Of a stretch of DNA of 64,000 bases, positions 47,178 to 53,282 are shown in pieces (position 1 is the stretch's first letter; every line of letters starts with the position of its first letter). The stretch covers positions 32,001-96,000 of the IMG/VR virus record IMGVR_UViG_3300033146_005596. The stretch is one strand, 5' to 3'. Below the pieces are notes generated by a model. The model made no database searches and was not told the origin of the DNA. It was given only the letters and a program-made list of their open reading frames with translations. The position numbers and the translations under genes were made by a program. This stretch comes from a virus.

Positions 47178-48260
47178 TCATTTATTATCTTTTTCTTTTT
47201 TATTAAACCAAATCTCATAGCTTCTACTTTTAATCTTAGCTGATATATCTGGAGAGCTATACCCCCTTATTACAATACCTTCTCGCTTTACTTTACTATT
47301 CAATAAAGAAGTACCTTCAGAATACTCCAGTAGCTCCTTGACTGAGTTTCCAAGCTTGGAAAGGCTAGTACACTCTTTTAATATTGGTACATAAGATAAT
47401 CCTGTTTCTAAAAAAAAGCTGGTCATTTTCTCAAAGCCCAAATCCTTTTCTGTATCTAAGTTCCTAACATTATACACAAAAAAAGCTAATATATCAAGAT
47501 TATAAATATTTTTCTGAATACCAGGCCCAACAATCTCACCTTGGACCGCAATATTAAAACCGTGCTTTTTTTTATATTTTTTTAACACCTTGTTTAGTTG
47601 GTACTGTTCAGCTACTCGGTACCAGTTATTACTCTTGTCTAACCTCCGTGTATTATGGCTAAAAACTTTAAACTTCTTACCTTCTAAGGAGTAAGCGGCC
47701 GCTTGACCTTCCAACTTTTCAGTAACAGAAAAAAGTATATTTTCCTTTTTGAGTCTATCATAACAAACCTGAATATTAGTCTCGCCGCTTTTTTTAATAT
47801 TAGCTGGATAGGCAAAATCAATAGGGCCTATGAGTTTTATTCTCAATTTCTGGAAAAAGTTTAATTTAGTAGTGTCCGTTTGTGCAGTCTTTTGCTCATA
47901 TCTTTTAATTTCTAAAATATCAGCAACTTTTAAGCCTTCAACTCTATTCTTAGCAAGAAGAGTTTTAGGTAAAATGTCTAAGCTGAATACAATTCCTTGA
48001 GAAAATAATCCTCGCATTTTCATATTCCGAATCCTAAAACCTTTTACTCGACTGTTATAGCACCTCGACCTTAAGAACTCAAACTTAGGCTTTTCTGGTA
48101 ATACTGTATCATATTCAATATAAACACACAGGTCCCCAGCTTTGAAATCATCTTTTTTTACAATGACATCCCAGCCAAGAACATGTGCTAATTCGATATT
48201 ATCACAGCCTTTAATTGGCTCTATACTTTTAATCTTTTGAATGCTTGCTAAATCTCGCAT
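47178..48260 (-). CDS. RNA ligase, DRB0094/Rnl5 family
   Basis: N-terminal LASIQKI...I.GCDNIE...V.GW.VIVKK..F..GDLCVYIE.D; TEKLEG, QGEIVGPGIQKN, REGIV. Confidence 0.88.
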   Translation of the reverse strand: MRDLASIQKIKSIEPIKGCDNIELAHVLGWDVIVKKDDFKAGDLCVYIEYDTVLPEKPKFEFLRSRCYNSRVKGFRIRNMKMRGLFSQGIVFSLDILPKTLLAKNRVEGLKVADILEIKRYEQKTAQTDTTKLNFFQKLRIKLIGPIDFAYPANIKKSGETNIQVCYDRLKKENILFSVTEKLEGQAAAYSLEGKKFKVFSHNTRRLDKSNNWYRVAEQYQLNKVLKKYKKKHGFNIAVQGEIVGPGIQKNIYNLDILAFFVYNVRNLDTEKDLGFEKMTSFFLETGLSYVPILKECTSLSKLGNSVKELLEYSEGTSLLNSKVKREGIVIRGYSSPDISAKIKSRSYEIWFNKKEKDNK

Positions 48261-48825: not shown

Positions 48826-49049
48826 TTACCTCCCCTTCCTCTTCTTATAATTGAAATAATCATTAAGGTAACTCCTATTATAAGCATTAAACTAGAATAG
48901 ATAGCAAAAACTAATAATGGGAAGATGCTTATAATCCACCAACTTACAAAAATTAAGCCAAATAGCTTAAGTCCTATAAGAGTAAACCACGCTCCATAAA
49001 ATACCAGGCCTTCTAAATTTGTGTTTAACCATTTAATAAACTTTTTCAT
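48822..49049 (-). CDS. small membrane protein
   Basis: LKLFGLI..SWW.I..P hydrophobic pattern. Confidence 0.55.
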   Translation of the reverse strand: MKKFIKWLNTNLEGLVFYGAWFTLIGLKLFGLIFVSWWIISIFPLLVFAIYSSLMLIIGVTLMIISIIRRGRGGK

Positions 49050-49054
49050 AAACT

Positions 49055-50185
49055 CTACCCCTTTATATTATAAACAGATTTCCAGATTTCAATATCTGAT
49101 ATATTACCAGATAGTTCTTTAATCACAATATCAGCGTCTTTGTAAGCCCTAGGACTTTCATCTAGCCTCTTCTCATCTATACAAGAGCTCCAAATGTCTT
49201 TAGTATCCTCCTTAAACTCTTCCATTGCTAGTGTCTTTTTAGCTTGTGTTCTTGAGAAATTACGGCCAAGCCCATGAGGAGCTGAACTGTTCCAATCAGT
49301 TTTTCCTCTTCCATACCCAACCAAAACACCTAAACCCATATTTAAAGGTATAATAACCTTTTCTAGCTTATGAGCAGATATAGCCCCCTTCCTAAGTATA
49401 TTATCCTCAAAATCAATATAATTATGAACTGATGAAAAAGTCTGCATTCCATTCCTATTAAAAAACTCAAATATAATAGTAGAATAAATCAAGGACCGAC
49501 TAGTCTCTGCATACTCTTGAGCTATTTTCATGTGGTCAAAATATTTCTTAGCAGCTTTTCCATCTAAGTACTCTAAGCCTTTTTCTGCGTCTTTACAAGT
49601 ATCCTCTGCTATTTTCTGGTGATAATCACAAATGTCTTTTCCAAACTTTCTAGAGCCAGTATGAACCACTAGGTAATGCTCATTGTTTTTATCTTTAACA
49701 ATTTCAATAAAGTGATTACCACCTCCCAGGGTACCAATAGAGTTCTTGTACCTTTTTATGGAGTCTTCTTGACCTATTTCTTTAGCTACTTTTTCTATTT
49801 TCTTTAACAGACCCACTAAATTATTTCTTTCAAGAACTTTATCCAGATTTTGATGTATGTTAAATCCAACTGGAGTCCTTTCTCTTATAAACTTGTCAAG
49901 CCTTTCAAAAGTTGTTGCATCCAAGTTGTTCAAACCATCAATAGACGTACAAGAAACGCCACAGCCAATGTCTACACCAATTAAATTTGGTATTACTTTT
50001 GAGCCCAACTCCATTGTTAACCCAATAGGACCAGCAGCTCCAAAGTGGTTATCTGGCATTATTCTAACTTTCTTACCTTTTGAAACAGGAGAAACCATAA
50101 TAGATTTAACTTGTTCTGCTACGTTATCAGGTACTTCATTACAAAATATTTTAGCGGTACCGAATTTTCCTTTTATTTCTTCCAT
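49055..50185 (-). CDS. rtcB: RtcB RNA 3'-phosphate/5'-OH ligase
   Basis: MPDNH.G..PIG, GVDIGCG, LGGGNHFIE, HTGSR, HNY, RKGA, SAPHG.GR, DESPRAYK. Confidence 0.93.
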   Translation of the reverse strand: MEEIKGKFGTAKIFCNEVPDNVAEQVKSIMVSPVSKGKKVRIMPDNHFGAAGPIGLTMELGSKVIPNLIGVDIGCGVSCTSIDGLNNLDATTFERLDKFIRERTPVGFNIHQNLDKVLERNNLVGLLKKIEKVAKEIGQEDSIKRYKNSIGTLGGGNHFIEIVKDKNNEHYLVVHTGSRKFGKDICDYHQKIAEDTCKDAEKGLEYLDGKAAKKYFDHMKIAQEYAETSRSLIYSTIIFEFFNRNGMQTFSSVHNYIDFEDNILRKGAISAHKLEKVIIPLNMGLGVLVGYGRGKTDWNSSAPHGLGRNFSRTQAKKTLAMEEFKEDTKDIWSSCIDEKRLDESPRAYKDADIVIKELSGNISDIEIWKSVYNIKG

Positions 50186-50229
50186 ACTTTAACTCCTATT
50201 TTTAGTATTCTTTTTATCTGGTCTAATTG

Positions 50230-50334
50230 TGGACCTGTCGGGATTTGCACCCGAGTCTTATAACAACTTGGCTTTTCTTTCTAGTGCAGTTATTTCACCT
50301 CAGGCATTGTTACAATCGATACTAGTTCAGGCCC
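50230..50334 (-). ncRNA. ssrA: minimal tmRNA (tRNA-like domain + very short mRNA-like segment)
   Basis: acceptor GGGCCUG/CAGGUCC-A with G3.U70; unpaired D-loop ending UCGA; helix UUGUAACAA/UUGUUAUAA; GAC + T-arm UCGGG-UGCAAAU-CCCGA; AUAACU-GCA resume-like motif. Confidence 0.8.
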
Positions 50335-50342
50335 TATTCTCT

Positions 50343-51062
50343 TTATTCTAAATCAAAGAACTCATTCCATAAACAAATGGACTTCTTATCCTTTGAAATA
50401 TAATCTTCGTGAAAATGGCCAAAAAGCCATTTATCAAACTTAACTTTCCCAGCAATCATACCAAAATATTCTCTGATACAACGCTCATCAGAATCAGTTT
50501 TATAATTAAATAACCCTTCTCTGTTCATCTCCTCAAACAAACTACTAGAACAAGTATGTGTTACTATAACATCAACTTTGTTTCTTCGCTTTTTAAGAGC
50601 AGCTAAGCCTTTACTAAATTCTCGGACAGTTGGAATCTCTTCCTTCCACCAAGAAACATAAGGAATTCTATTACCTTTATCAAATGAATTAGCACCACCA
50701 AATGTAAATATTTTCTTCCTTTCTATCGTATATGTCTCACCTCTTAACAGATGATAAACATTAGTATCAACAACGCCAACAGTCCCTTTATACTTCTTTT
50801 CTCTGGGTAATTTATTTAATAGCTCAAAGTTTTCATGATTTCCATCTACAAAACAAATAACTCCATAAAACTCGGCATACTGTCTGAACTCTCTTTCTAT
50901 TTTTTCTTTAGCTGCTTCAATATCTGCATCCCAGACAAAGCCAAAATCTCCAGCTACTATAACAATATCTTCTTTTTTTAGACCTTTAAACTTATCCAAG
51001 TCTGATTTACTGATACAGCCATGGGTATCTCCAATAATTCTAATCATTTTCTGTACCTCCAT
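50343..51062 (-). CDS. calcineurin-like metallophosphoesterase
   Basis: GDTHG, GDFG, DGNHEN, GGA.S.D, VTHT, FGHFH. Confidence 0.88.
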   Translation of the reverse strand: MEVQKMIRIIGDTHGCISKSDLDKFKGLKKEDIVIVAGDFGFVWDADIEAAKEKIEREFRQYAEFYGVICFVDGNHENFELLNKLPREKKYKGTVGVVDTNVYHLLRGETYTIERKKIFTFGGANSFDKGNRIPYVSWWKEEIPTVREFSKGLAALKKRRNKVDVIVTHTCSSSLFEEMNREGLFNYKTDSDERCIREYFGMIAGKVKFDKWLFGHFHEDYISKDKKSICLWNEFFDLE

Positions 51063-51128
51063 ATACTATTATAATAAGCAACTTTATGGTATTTCTTATA
51101 AAATATTTTAAAAAATTACCATAAAAAT

Positions 51129-51150
51129 AGTCGGTACTTAGGTACCGACT
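51129..51150 (-). terminator. hairpin downstream of the tRNA cluster
   Basis: AGTCGGTAC-TTAG-GTACCGACT. Confidence 0.55.
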
Positions 51151-51525
51151 TTATTAAATACAAACTTTATTTAATAACTTATTTTTAAATGAGACCAGAA
51201 TTAATTCTGGATTTGCACCGGAGAAATCTCCGGATTTGTCATTGCTAGAACTAATACATAGGCCAGGTTTGGAAATGAGCCTCTTTTGAGACTGCCTAAA
51301 TAAAAGCAATAACTCCTGTTAAAAATTATTTTTAAAAAGTCTCTTTCTGCAATAGCAGGACTTGTAGAAAGTGTATTTGCTATCACTTTCTTAACTCATT
51401 AAAAATCCAATGATTTTTGTCCGACGCATTTTTTTTGCTCTATTTCCTCTTTCACAGCCTTCATACTTTATCTCCTTTTTATTTTGTAAATCATCTATCT
51501 ACTATATTGCAGACCTTTCTTTAGA

Positions 51526-51599
51526 TGCTACTTATCTAGAATTGCACTAGACTTTACTAGGTTTATTCCTAGCAGCTTTACTTCATAAGCGAAAGTAGC
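51526..51599 (-). ncRNA. tRNA-like RNA with non-canonical 6-nt anticodon loop
   Basis: GCUACUU/AAGUAGC-A acceptor, GCUU/AAGC D-stem, CUAGG-AAUAAA-CCUAG arm, UCUAG-UGCAAUU-CUAGA T-arm. Confidence 0.6.
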
Positions 51600-51760
51600 T
51601 CAAAGGGGTTTTATTTAAGTGAGTACCTAACTCTCACTCTCCGGTACAACGCTTAGCTGGCAACTATAGCATAGGAGTCTTGGTACCAACTAGGCAGCTC
51701 ATACAGGAGTTTTCAAGAAGTTTTTGATAGCTTGTTCAACAATCAATTATACTTCATTTC

Positions 51761-51832
51761 TAGCAGTGGCTGGAATTGCACCAACATGCACTAGGTTATG
51801 AGCCTAGCCGCTTTCTAATCGCTCACACTGCG
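51761..51832 (-). tRNA. tRNA-Met(CAT), initiator-like 1:72 mismatch
   Basis: CUAGG-CUCAUAA-CCUAG anticodon arm; GUUGG-UGCAAUU-CCAGC T-arm; CGCAGUG/CACUGCU acceptor. Confidence 0.8.
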
Positions 51833-51833
51833 A

Positions 51834-51906
51834 CGGAAAATCTTGGGTTCGAACCAAGGACCTACGACTTTACAGACCGTTGCTCTACCAACTGAGCTAA
51901 TTTTCC
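51834..51906 (-). tRNA. tRNA with GTA (Tyr) anticodon, short variable loop
   Basis: GGAAAAU/AUUUUCC acceptor, GCUC/GAGC D-stem, ACGGU-CUGUAAA-GUCGU, CUUGG-UUCGAAC-CCAAG. Confidence 0.8.
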
Positions 51907-51910
51907 AGGA

Positions 51911-51981
51911 CGGAAAATCTTGGGTTCGAACCAAGGACCTACGAGGTAACAGCGTTGCTCTACCAACTGAGCTAATTTTCC
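51911..51981 (-). tRNA. duplicate tRNA body with remodelled, shortened anticodon arm (atypical or pseudo tRNA)
   Basis: identical to 51834..51906 except the anticodon arm ACG-CUGUUACCU-CGU. Confidence 0.65.
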
Positions 51982-52007
51982 AGTAATTTGCATTCTAAAT
52001 GCTAATT

Positions 52008-52080
52008 TAGTTCCTAAGAGATTCGAACTCTTGTTATCAGATTGAAGGCCTGATGTCCTAACCAATTAGACGAAGGAACC
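52008..52080 (-). tRNA. tRNA-Glu(TTC), C at position 33
   Basis: GGUUCCU/AGGAACU acceptor, Glu-type GUCUA..GGUUAGGAC D-arm, UCAGG-CCUUCAA-UCUGA, AAGAG-UUCGAAU-CUCUU. Confidence 0.8.
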
Positions 52081-52163
52081 AAGTCATGAGCCTTGTTACT
52101 AACTCATACTTATAATAGCTAACAAACTTGCTCGCTCTGAATACTTCAGCCAGCTAAAGTTAA

Positions 52164-52236
52164 GTAAGACGACTCAGATTCGAACTGAGGAACTCCTGTT
52201 CCCAAATGGACCACTTGTGCAACCCAACCCGTCTTA
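52164..52236 (-). pseudogene. degenerate tRNA-Pro(TGG)-like sequence
   Basis: intact acceptor UAAGACG/CGUCUUA and T-arm CUCAG-UUCGAAU-CUGAG; UUUGGGA loop but unpaired anticodon and D stems. Confidence 0.55.
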
Positions 52237-52281
52237 TGCTATTTAATTAGTGCTTTGAGGTTTTATACTCAAAACTAATTA

Positions 52282-52352
52282 TAGGGCCTAGAAAATTTGA
52301 ATTCCTACTATCTCCGTCAAAGGGAGATGTGCTACCATTACACTAAAGCCCT
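52282..52352 (-). tRNA. tRNA-Gln(TTG)
   Basis: AGGGCUU/AGGCCCU acceptor, GUGU/GCAC D-stem, UCUCC-CUUUGAC-GGAGA. Confidence 0.8.
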
Positions 52353-52359
52353 GCATCAA

Positions 52360-52620
52360 CTATCTACAAGTTGCGTTGAAAATTAGACTAACAACTACAA
52401 TAATTGTAAAAATAAAAACAATGGTATATACCCCAACAAAAGCTAGAGTACCAAAAGCTAGCGGACCGCACTCTACAAAGTCATTTACTCTTTCAAGTAT
52501 AAGTCCTATGATTCCCCCAATAATCCCTAAGATTACTGGTAGGTAACAAACAACAAATACTCCAATAGCCTTTCCTACCTTTTTATTATGCACACTATCA
52601 TAACTCTTAGTTGCTACCAT
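52360..52620 (-). CDS. small membrane protein
   Basis: two TM segments; class A promoter at 52640-52668. Confidence 0.55.
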   Translation of the reverse strand: MVATKSYDSVHNKKVGKAIGVFVVCYLPVILGIIGGIIGLILERVNDFVECGPLAFGTLAFVGVYTIVFIFTIIVVVSLIFNATCR

Positions 52621-52654
52621 AATTCCTCCTTACACATATAATATAACGGACTTT

Positions 52655-52933
52655 TTATTTCCTGTGTAACTTTTTATTTTTTATTATAAAATAAATTACT
52701 TGGCCTACAACACAAAATCCATATATCATAGTATAAGATATTAAAAATACTATAGCAAATAGTCCTATAGAAATACCTCCAAATACCATGGTACCAAGAA
52801 AATAGTCTACAAAAAATATTACATTTATAAGTACTACTGATAACATAAAACCCAAAGTCATTGGTAAAGTACTAACCCAAAACATTGGATATTTAGTTTT
52901 ATACACTTCTAGCCTCCAGTCTTTTCTTATCAT
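52655..52933 (-). CDS. small membrane protein
   Basis: two TM segments. Confidence 0.5.
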   Translation of the reverse strand: MIRKDWRLEVYKTKYPMFWVSTLPMTLGFMLSVVLINVIFFVDYFLGTMVFGGISIGLFAIVFLISYTMIYGFCVVGQVIYFIIKNKKLHRK

Positions 52934-53282
52934 CTAACAATTGTTTAGAAAGCTTCATAGCTTTGTCCATATCATAAGATAACAACGCAAATAATATTGC
53001 TCTTCTTTCTGGGCTCAAGCTATCTTTGTTAAGCTCATAGAAATCTTCAGCAGAAACCTGTGTTTGATTTTCATCATAGTATTTTCTAAACTCACAGTAA
53101 TGTACAATCTTTTCAAGGTCCAGCATATCTTGACCGGGCTTCTTTCTCAAAATATATTTGATAGCTGACGCAGTACAAAAGTCCATGTTATGGATTAGCT
53201 CAATAGGCTGTACTCCTGCATTGTCCTGATGCTTTTTATAATGGTTTCCACCGGGCTGATAATCTAACGGATTTTTACTCAT
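52899..53282 (-). CDS. DUF3310 family protein (T7 gp1.7-like nucleotide kinase)
   Basis: Q.GGNHYK...VQPIE...MDFC...AIKYILR.K.G...DLEK..HY. Confidence 0.75.
   Translation of the reverse strand: MSKNPLDYQPGGNHYKKHQDNAGVQPIELIHNMDFCTASAIKYILRKKPGQDMLDLEKIVHYCEFRKYYDENQTQVSAEDFYELNKDSLSPERRAILFALLSYDMDKAMKLSKQLLDDKKRLEARSV

Follow-up and report, generated by a model that had tools for sequence, protein, structure and literature searches.

The closest described counterpart of the element analysed here is a small RNA of Mycobacterium phage DS6A, which Table 2 and the related text of Hudson, Lau & Williams (2014; Front Microbiol 5:421) list as 'TLD only' (TLD, tRNA-like domain). That article cites Mao et al. 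2009 for a similar molecule that strongly inhibits transfer-messenger RNA (tmRNA), perhaps by titrating SmpB. The DS6A RNA is entered in the tmRNA Website as tmID 11587; with the tmRNA model RF00023 of Rfam it was placed at JN698994.1:28478-28560 (positions 1079-1161 of our locus L465), where the GenBank record leaves the space from gp33 to gp34 (DNA polymerase III) without annotation. Here we describe a locus that probably encodes a longer RNA of this kind. It lies in a 64-kb stretch of DNA (the window) that comprises bases 32001-96000 of the 126,585-bp IMG/VR virus record IMGVR_UViG_3300033146_005596 (CheckV completeness 43%, G+C content ~33%). In our preferred reading, which we hold to be probable, the locus is functional and its product is a tag-less mini-tmRNA of the DS6A family: a tRNA-like domain that accepts alanine is joined to helix 2, and a capped interior of 38 nt stands in for the pseudoknots and the tag template.

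A first-pass annotation, made from the nucleotide sequence alone, had described the element as a ~105-nt tmRNA-like RNA on the minus strand. This description holds: the sequence is exactly as noted, and the acceptor stem, the G3:U70 pair, the discriminator A, the D-loop ending UCGA, helix 2, the GAC linker and the T-arm were all confirmed (Table 1). The absence of pseudoknots noted at the same time also stands. Only 38 nt lie between the two strands of helix 2, in the place where a normal tmRNA has its mRNA-like domain and pseudoknots; PK1-PK4 are lacking (no systematic pseudoknot search was made), and the RNA keeps the tRNA-like domain and helix 2. The gene has no encoded CCA (the next bases are CAA), and the neighbouring phage tRNA genes likewise lack it. 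The minimum-free-energy fold, in which the acceptor, helix-2 and T-arm stems all form together with the small interior hairpin, has an energy of -26.5 kcal/mol (z -1.80), and 10 of 200 shuffled sequences were equally stable; the fold energy alone is unremarkable. The CUAG of the D-loop could pair with a CUAG in the interior of the window RNA and of one relative (L349); the other relatives, inspected by eye, show no such pairing.

Membership in a family was revealed by covariance models. The first model (R1), built from the window RNA alone, found 47 full-length relatives with E<1e-4 in phage and metagenome loci, the nearest being L204 (62.2 bits), L144 (55.8), L432 (54.3), L182 (45.3) and L349 (42.3). 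The second (R2) is a leave-one-out model derived from 45 other RNAs, from which the window RNA was excluded. A covariance-model search had been proposed in the first-pass annotation as a check, and R2 recovers the site with 71.6 bits and an E-value of 4.5e-14, as the sole match in the 64 kb at E<=1. Since R1 finds 47 relatives and R2 finds the site without having been trained on it, the mini-tmRNA is more than a chance fold. The RNAs of DS6A and of two further loci (L188 and L147) did not reach E<1e-4 with R1 and were therefore outside the training set of R2, which scores the DS6A RNA at 52.7 bits (E 9.2e-10). Judged by these matches, the window RNA is a member of a widespread, mostly unannotated family of putative phage mini-tmRNAs.

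A degenerate pattern (GGG, TCGA, a gap of 45-75 nt, GAC, T-arm, TCCA) was used to collect further sequences from IMG/VR. All seven acceptor pairs and all five T-stem pairs are formed in 40 of the 92 stretches that it matched, where the chance expectation for the four free acceptor pairs is ~2%, and in half of these perfect-stem RNAs (20/40) helix 2 runs for 5 bp or more without a break. Among the matches listed for the same pattern elsewhere, such RNAs numbered 14 out of 119 for metagenome contigs and 3 out of 120 for contigs of bacterial genomes. The collected set, window RNA included, holds 49 distinct sequences of 91-122 nt. Several matches of the first pattern were discarded as tandem tRNA ends and those in L212 as tRNAs; L427 and L297 were rejected as the 3' ends of full-length tmRNAs (their helix 2 has 3 bp, and ARAGORN calls a longer tmRNA). 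Helix 2 played no part in the selection. In a 52-sequence alignment fitted to the model (A2), its positions are paired in 90.9% of cases and 10 of its 10 pairs have changed on both sides; in a control, a shift of the 3' partners by 1-3 columns left 43-55% of cells paired, counted over the entire structure.

The interior varies in length across the family, ranging from ~11 nt in a 68-nt RNA and 20 nt in DS6A up to 63 nt. The nucleotides shared between interiors look structural: a short stem closes the interior, which opens with a GA-rich stretch, carries (G/U)GC(A/C)C and YUG, and has a 3' side resembling GAAAG. The closest relatives pass the 47-bit cut-off of RF00023 in the profile search (L144 with 53.7 bits and L204 with 48.3 bits). 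In cmscan, L144 aligns end to end with the tmRNA model at 45.2 bits, with 35 nt replacing 300 of 374 model positions; the alignment covers the acceptor, D-loop, helix 2, GGAC, T-arm and acceptor of the tmRNA consensus.

Several variants within the family deserve mention in their own right. Nine loci (L159, L166, L180, L181, L183, L043, L103, L115 and L167) form a tight subgroup of 94-96 nt with GUCAC four times in the interior, a T-loop UGCRAxU and a D-loop AG. The 68-nt RNA (L021 1501-1568, minus strand) is a TLD-only RNA with G3:U70, scoring 34.1 bits with RF00023 and 31.4 bits with R2, in a GC-rich provirus record that encodes RtcB ~14 kb away. Two 95-nt GC-rich members (L086 11235-11329 and L073 11908-12002) have a helix 2 of 15 and 12 bp, respectively, and an interior of 15-21 nt; ARAGORN reports a permuted 'tmRNA*' at L086 with a 3-kb flank and nothing with a 100-nt flank.

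The alanine identity of the RNA was assessed with an acceptor-free scan, which fixed the D-loop, GAC and T-arm only and returned 25 stretches. A 7-bp acceptor stem is present in 11 of them, and all 11 carry both G3:U70 and the discriminator A; the remaining 14 have at most six acceptor pairs and are not complete mini-tmRNAs. Acceptor pairs 4-7 vary freely in the larger family alignment. That alanine identity is kept argues that charging matters. The D-loop and T-loop also vary together: all 25 sequences with U as the second T-loop base carry GG in the D-loop (23 parsed and two mis-parsed rows), and where that base is G, which is the state of the window RNA, the D-loop carries AG in 13 sequences and GG in three, the AG/G class stemming from about five lineages. 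This covariation, tabulated for rows with a helix 2 of at least 4 bp, fits a predicted tRNA-like elbow. The unusual G at T-loop position 2 is also carried by a fourth tRNA in the window (51761-51832, minus strand; T-loop UGCAAUU), which Rfam scores at 42 bits and ARAGORN does not call.

Drawing on established tmRNA biology, we propose the following course of events. The mini-tmRNA would be co-transcribed with the metallophosphoesterase and RtcB genes that flank it and excised by RNase P and 3' processing, and a host enzyme would add CCA. Host alanyl-tRNA synthetase would charge it with alanine through G3:U70 and A73, after which the charged RNA could bind host SmpB and EF-Tu, enter stalled ribosomes and rival host tmRNA both for these and for SmpB. 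Because the family has no conserved template, at most one alanine would be added and no degradation tag. The net effect would be that host tagging of proteins from broken messages is blocked or bypassed during infection, either through sequestration of SmpB and ribosomes from tagging, as has been suggested in print, or through tag-free rescue by other host factors. Most likely, then, the mini-tmRNA would act as a tag-less, alanine-charged competitor of host tmRNA for SmpB or the ribosome. The first-pass annotation had offered a decoy for SmpB or host tmRNA function as one possibility; this may be so, and it matches the only published remark on such an RNA in the part of Hudson et al. 2014 that deals with DS6A.

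A number of observations weigh against this reading. The strict G3:U70 argues that charging matters, which a pure SmpB sponge would not need, and either the inhibitor or the rescue form may hold; according to Hudson et al. 2014, inhibition of tmRNA by the similar molecule is independent of chargeability. No genes for SmpB, Pth, RF-1/ArfB-like or CCA-adding proteins were found in the 126.6-kb record, which says little at 43% completeness. Standard detectors miss the RNA: ARAGORN calls four tRNAs in the window and leaves the mini-tmRNA uncalled even with thresholds at 70%, and Rfam at the gathering score reports four tRNAs only. A cmscan of positions 50150-50420 at E<=10 gave no RF00023 match, the sole match being to tmRNA_permuted (14.9 bits, T-arm and 3' acceptor). 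The RF00023 profile search does align the whole window RNA (model positions 1-374), at 36.7 bits against a cut-off of 47 bits; since the same search gives sub-cut-off signals in archaeal control genomes, such a signal is unspecific alone. Finally, the counts of acceptor pairs, T-stem pairs and G3:U70 in the family alignment are circular, being imposed by the pattern and the filter.

Table 1. Features of the mini-tmRNA gene and its surroundings in the window
Feature	Position	Strand	Details
Mini-tmRNA gene, whole	50230..50334	-	105 nt; sequence read and family-model match
Acceptor stem, 5' strand (RNA 1-7)	50328..50334	-	pairs with 98-104; carries G3 of G3:U70
Stemless D-loop (RNA 8-19)	50316..50327	-	12 nt unpaired; ends UCGA; AG replaces the usual GG
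Helix 2, 5' strand (RNA 20-29)	50306..50315	-	10 bp with 68-77; minimum-free-energy fold
Interior (RNA 30-67)	50268..50305	-	38 nt; small GGUG/CACU hairpin, A-rich 3' side
Candidate tag frame GCA...UAA	50258..50287	-	ALERKAKLL*; translation; GCA at RNA position 48
Helix 2, 3' strand (RNA 68-77)	50258..50267	-	includes UAA of the candidate tag frame
GAC linker ahead of T-arm (RNA 78-80)	50255..50257	-	sequence read
T-arm (RNA 81-97)	50238..50254	-	5-bp stem (81-85 with 93-97), loop UGCAAAU
Acceptor stem, 3' strand (with U70), and unpaired discriminator A105	50230..50237	-	sequence and fold
Calcineurin-like metallophosphoesterase, upstream	50343..51062	-	Pfam PF00149, E 5.2e-12; stop 8 nt before the RNA
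RtcB RNA ligase, downstream	49055..50185	-	Pfam PF01139, E 5.6e-56; start 44 nt after the RNA
Second RNA ligase	47178-48260	-	same strand as the mini-tmRNA
tRNA cluster	51761-52352	-	same strand as the mini-tmRNA

The alternative that survives best, which we nevertheless regard as unlikely, is a tRNA-like element with its main role outside trans-translation: an RNase P/Z site that splits the phosphoesterase and RtcB messages, a decoy for defence nucleases (host nucleases that cleave tRNA or tmRNA), or a substrate or regulator of RNA-repair enzymes. Its strength lies in the surroundings of the gene. The RNA sits between two open reading frames (ORFs), 8 nt after one and 44 nt before the next, within an RNA-repair cluster of metallophosphoesterase, RtcB and RNA ligase. 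No sigma-70-like site was found in the gaps flanking the mini-tmRNA, and from this we infer co-transcription and processing. A terminator-like hairpin at 51129-51150 (minus strand; nine pairs and a T-run) lies just upstream of the metallophosphoesterase gene and would mark the start of a transcription unit with the mini-tmRNA and RtcB. Comparable settings occur in two relatives: a 101-nt mini-tmRNA in L172 lies directly 3' of RNA ligase and PNKP genes and is followed by tRNA-Tyr (L172 3404-5262), and L144 has a metallophosphoesterase and an ATP-dependent ligase near its mini-tmRNA. This RNA-repair setting may point to a role at times when tRNAs or messages are being cut by nucleases of the host. 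It is, however, not general in the family, as tblastn of six repair proteins against the 49 mini-tmRNA loci, a low-sensitivity test, gave matches in the source loci (L172 and L144) only, and RNA repair as a family-wide context was tentatively dropped for this reason; tRNAs lie within 3 kb in 13 of the 49 loci, window included. Moreover, a processing signal or decoy would need neither the G3:U70 and A73 found in 11 of 11 complete stems nor the tmRNA-specific D-loop, GAC and helix 2.

No close relative of the phage itself was found in the collections searched. A megablast search of positions 49000-53000 against GenBank phages gave no match, and an exact 28-nt T-arm/acceptor pattern had no match in IMG/VR. 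Relatives of the RtcB neighbour were found in 19 IMG/VR loci at 28-41% identity, where R1 gave ordinary tRNAs only, and the top non-self match in an RtcB protein search was 49% identical; the metallophosphoesterase had no relative in IMG/VR. A pattern designed for the sub-lineage (TCGATT...AAGAC..., 42 stretches) returned nothing closer or new beyond L144, L182 and L204.

A second alternative, quite improbable in our estimate, treats the window RNA as a minimal tmRNA of one piece that still tags: the ribosome would resume at GCA, read nine codons, melt helix 2, stop at UAA and append AALERKAKLL. This corresponds to the view of the first-pass annotation that a resume signal and a tag of nine codons seem to be retained. 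An ORF for ALERKAKLL* does exist, and directly ahead of GCA stand the five bases UAACU, which agree with the E. coli context UAGUC in having U at -5 and A at -4; in E. coli, A86 hardly varies and determines the frame (Miller et al. 2008). The resume codon, frame and stop, by contrast, are not conserved. Among the seven lineages with a YUGCR motif, an in-frame stop before the T-arm occurs in three, after nine codons in the window RNA, after four in L144 and after 13 in L182/L432, and the corresponding peptides (ALERKAKLL, ASKA and AKGHCTIHAGLTF) have nothing in common. In the other four (L204, L349, L175 and L444) no stop follows the motif in frame; one of these, L349, has CUGCACUAGAAA in common with the window RNA. 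Interiors of the 94-nt subgroup lack GCN codons altogether, and interiors that shrink to ~11 nt point to a dispensable region.

Chance accounts for such frames readily. In 5000 dinucleotide-preserving shuffles of RNA positions 30-80, a GCN-started ORF of at least four codons that ends before the T-stem appeared in 53% of cases, and one of at least nine codons in 17%; a GCN-started ORF with its stop before the T-stem is present in 17 of the 41 distinct family sequences (out of 49) that have a helix 2 of at least 4 bp. The stop also lies inside the helix that holds the tRNA-like domain, and from published tmRNA-ribosome geometry a 38-nt loop would be short for the round trip through the decoding centre. 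In the minimum-free-energy fold of the window RNA, the CACU that pairs with GGUG overlaps the GCA codon. The 9-codon frame is therefore probably a coincidence. Conservation of the tag frame in related phages had been named beforehand as a point to be checked, with the statement that its lack would reduce the element to a tRNA-like-domain-only RNA; the frame is not conserved among the relatives compared, all of them distant, and by that statement the RNA is of the TLD type.

One regularity speaks weakly for tagging and to the detriment of a tag-less RNA. In four related, AT-rich lineages the GCR codon shares the frame of the NAA|GAC junction, its distance to GAC being 30 nt in the window RNA, 30 nt in L204, 24 nt in L144 and 42 nt in L182/L432, all multiples of three, and three of the four have a stop at or before the end of helix 2; the sequences are few and partly related. 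There is accordingly a slim chance that the AT-rich sub-lineage (window, L144 and L182/L432) consists of minimal one-piece tmRNAs with short, lineage-specific, non-degron tags and no pseudoknots, which would resume on the conserved YUGCR alanine codon and stop within the 3' strand of helix 2 or immediately ahead of it. If true, these would be the smallest tagging tmRNAs known, and the ribosome could thread a closed loop of ~38 nt. At 51832-51982 (minus strand), two adjacent tRNA-like genes with the same body are called by ARAGORN as tRNA-Tyr (gta) and 'tRNA-Stop' (tta). In the latter the region of the anticodon loop is unusual and extended; should this tRNA really read UAA, it would read through the UAA of the candidate frame.

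It is very improbable that the locus is functionless, whether as the decayed remnant of a full-length phage tmRNA or as a chance tRNA-like fold. Such an origin would agree with scores below the curated ARAGORN and Rfam thresholds and with a fold-energy z of only -1.8, and is opposed by the recurrence of the architecture in dozens of unrelated phage contigs, by compensatory changes at every helix-2 pair and by the leave-one-out E-value of 4.5e-14. A D-stem-less alanine tRNA would share the alanine identity and the stemless D-loop and is hardly credible, as the RNA has no anticodon arm, only a 10-bp helix with a 38-nt interior whose sole hairpin has a 9-nt loop, and is called neither by ARAGORN nor by the Rfam tRNA model.

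Phages rely on host ribosomes just when messages and tRNAs are being cut up, both by defences of the host and by nucleases of the phage. If the preferred reading of a tag-less mini-tmRNA is true, an alanine-charged, template-less tmRNA mimic would keep host tagging and degradation off phage proteins, or would free ribosomes without marking their products. In print there is one line on the DS6A RNA; here a family is seen that spans dozens of uncultivated phages and goes uncalled by the usual annotation tools, with conserved alanine identity, a covarying helix 2 and D-loop/T-loop covariation as its hallmarks. Within the window, the leave-one-out model singled out the mini-tmRNA where ARAGORN and Rfam at curated thresholds fail. 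The member described here adds a longer, 105-nt form with a structured interior and a position within an RNA-repair cluster; this instance thus adds a variant form and a context, not a new principle.

The TLD, helix 2, GAC and T-arm of the window RNA are homologous to those of the canonical one-piece tmRNA (RF00023), from which it differs in that ~300 of 374 positions are missing (pseudoknots 1-4, the tag template and helix 5, as judged on L144), in that its kind has no conserved resume codon, frame or stop, and in its score below the gathering threshold. Jakobid mitochondrial tmRNAs are two-piece or permuted. They are likewise naturally reduced, with a dominant tRNA-like part (Burger et al. 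2013, PMC3590771); they are, however, organellar and not viral. Full-length phage tmRNAs are known from the mycobacteriophage Bxz1 group and Bacillus phage G, according to Hudson et al. 2014, and from the GenBank annotation of the Gordonia phages Boopy, Forza, BlueNGold and Mareelih and of Brevundimonas phage Bajun. These are phage-borne and ssrA-derived like the window RNA, but their annotated tags have ~28 residues, whereas the window RNA is one third of their length and has no conserved tag. With the T-arm/acceptor part of the window RNA, blastn gave weak matches (E 0.03-4); in six of the nine records hit the match falls inside an annotated tmRNA gene of these Gordonia and Brevundimonas phages, two are Sixama records with no annotation at the position, and one is unrelated. 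Queries with the 68-nt relative and with L204 matched, respectively, the T-arms of Caulobacter phage tRNA-Phe only and T-arms only.

The nearest comparison remains that with DS6A. Literature on a phage family of mini-tmRNAs or TLD-only tmRNAs was not found beyond Hudson et al. 2014 in a search outside which most subscription journals lay. Both RNAs are phage-encoded and unannotated in their own records, and they share G3:U70, A73, a stemless D-loop ending TCGA, a short helix 2, a 3-nt linker and a T-arm, with no pseudoknots and no tag template; the DS6A interior starts with an ACGAAAA motif that is also present in the relative L204. The DS6A RNA differs by its length of 83 nt, a 6-bp helix 2, a 20-nt interior, a GC-rich composition, the linker CAC and its host genome, a 60.6-kb temperate-type actinophage, in contrast to the 105 nt, 10-bp helix 2, 38-nt ORF-holding interior and T-loop UGCAAAU of the window RNA, which belongs to an AT-rich large phage and lies in an RNA-repair cluster. 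On this comparison of sequence and predicted structure, the window RNA belongs with the DS6A RNA, as a form with a long interior, to a kind that was already known but barely described.

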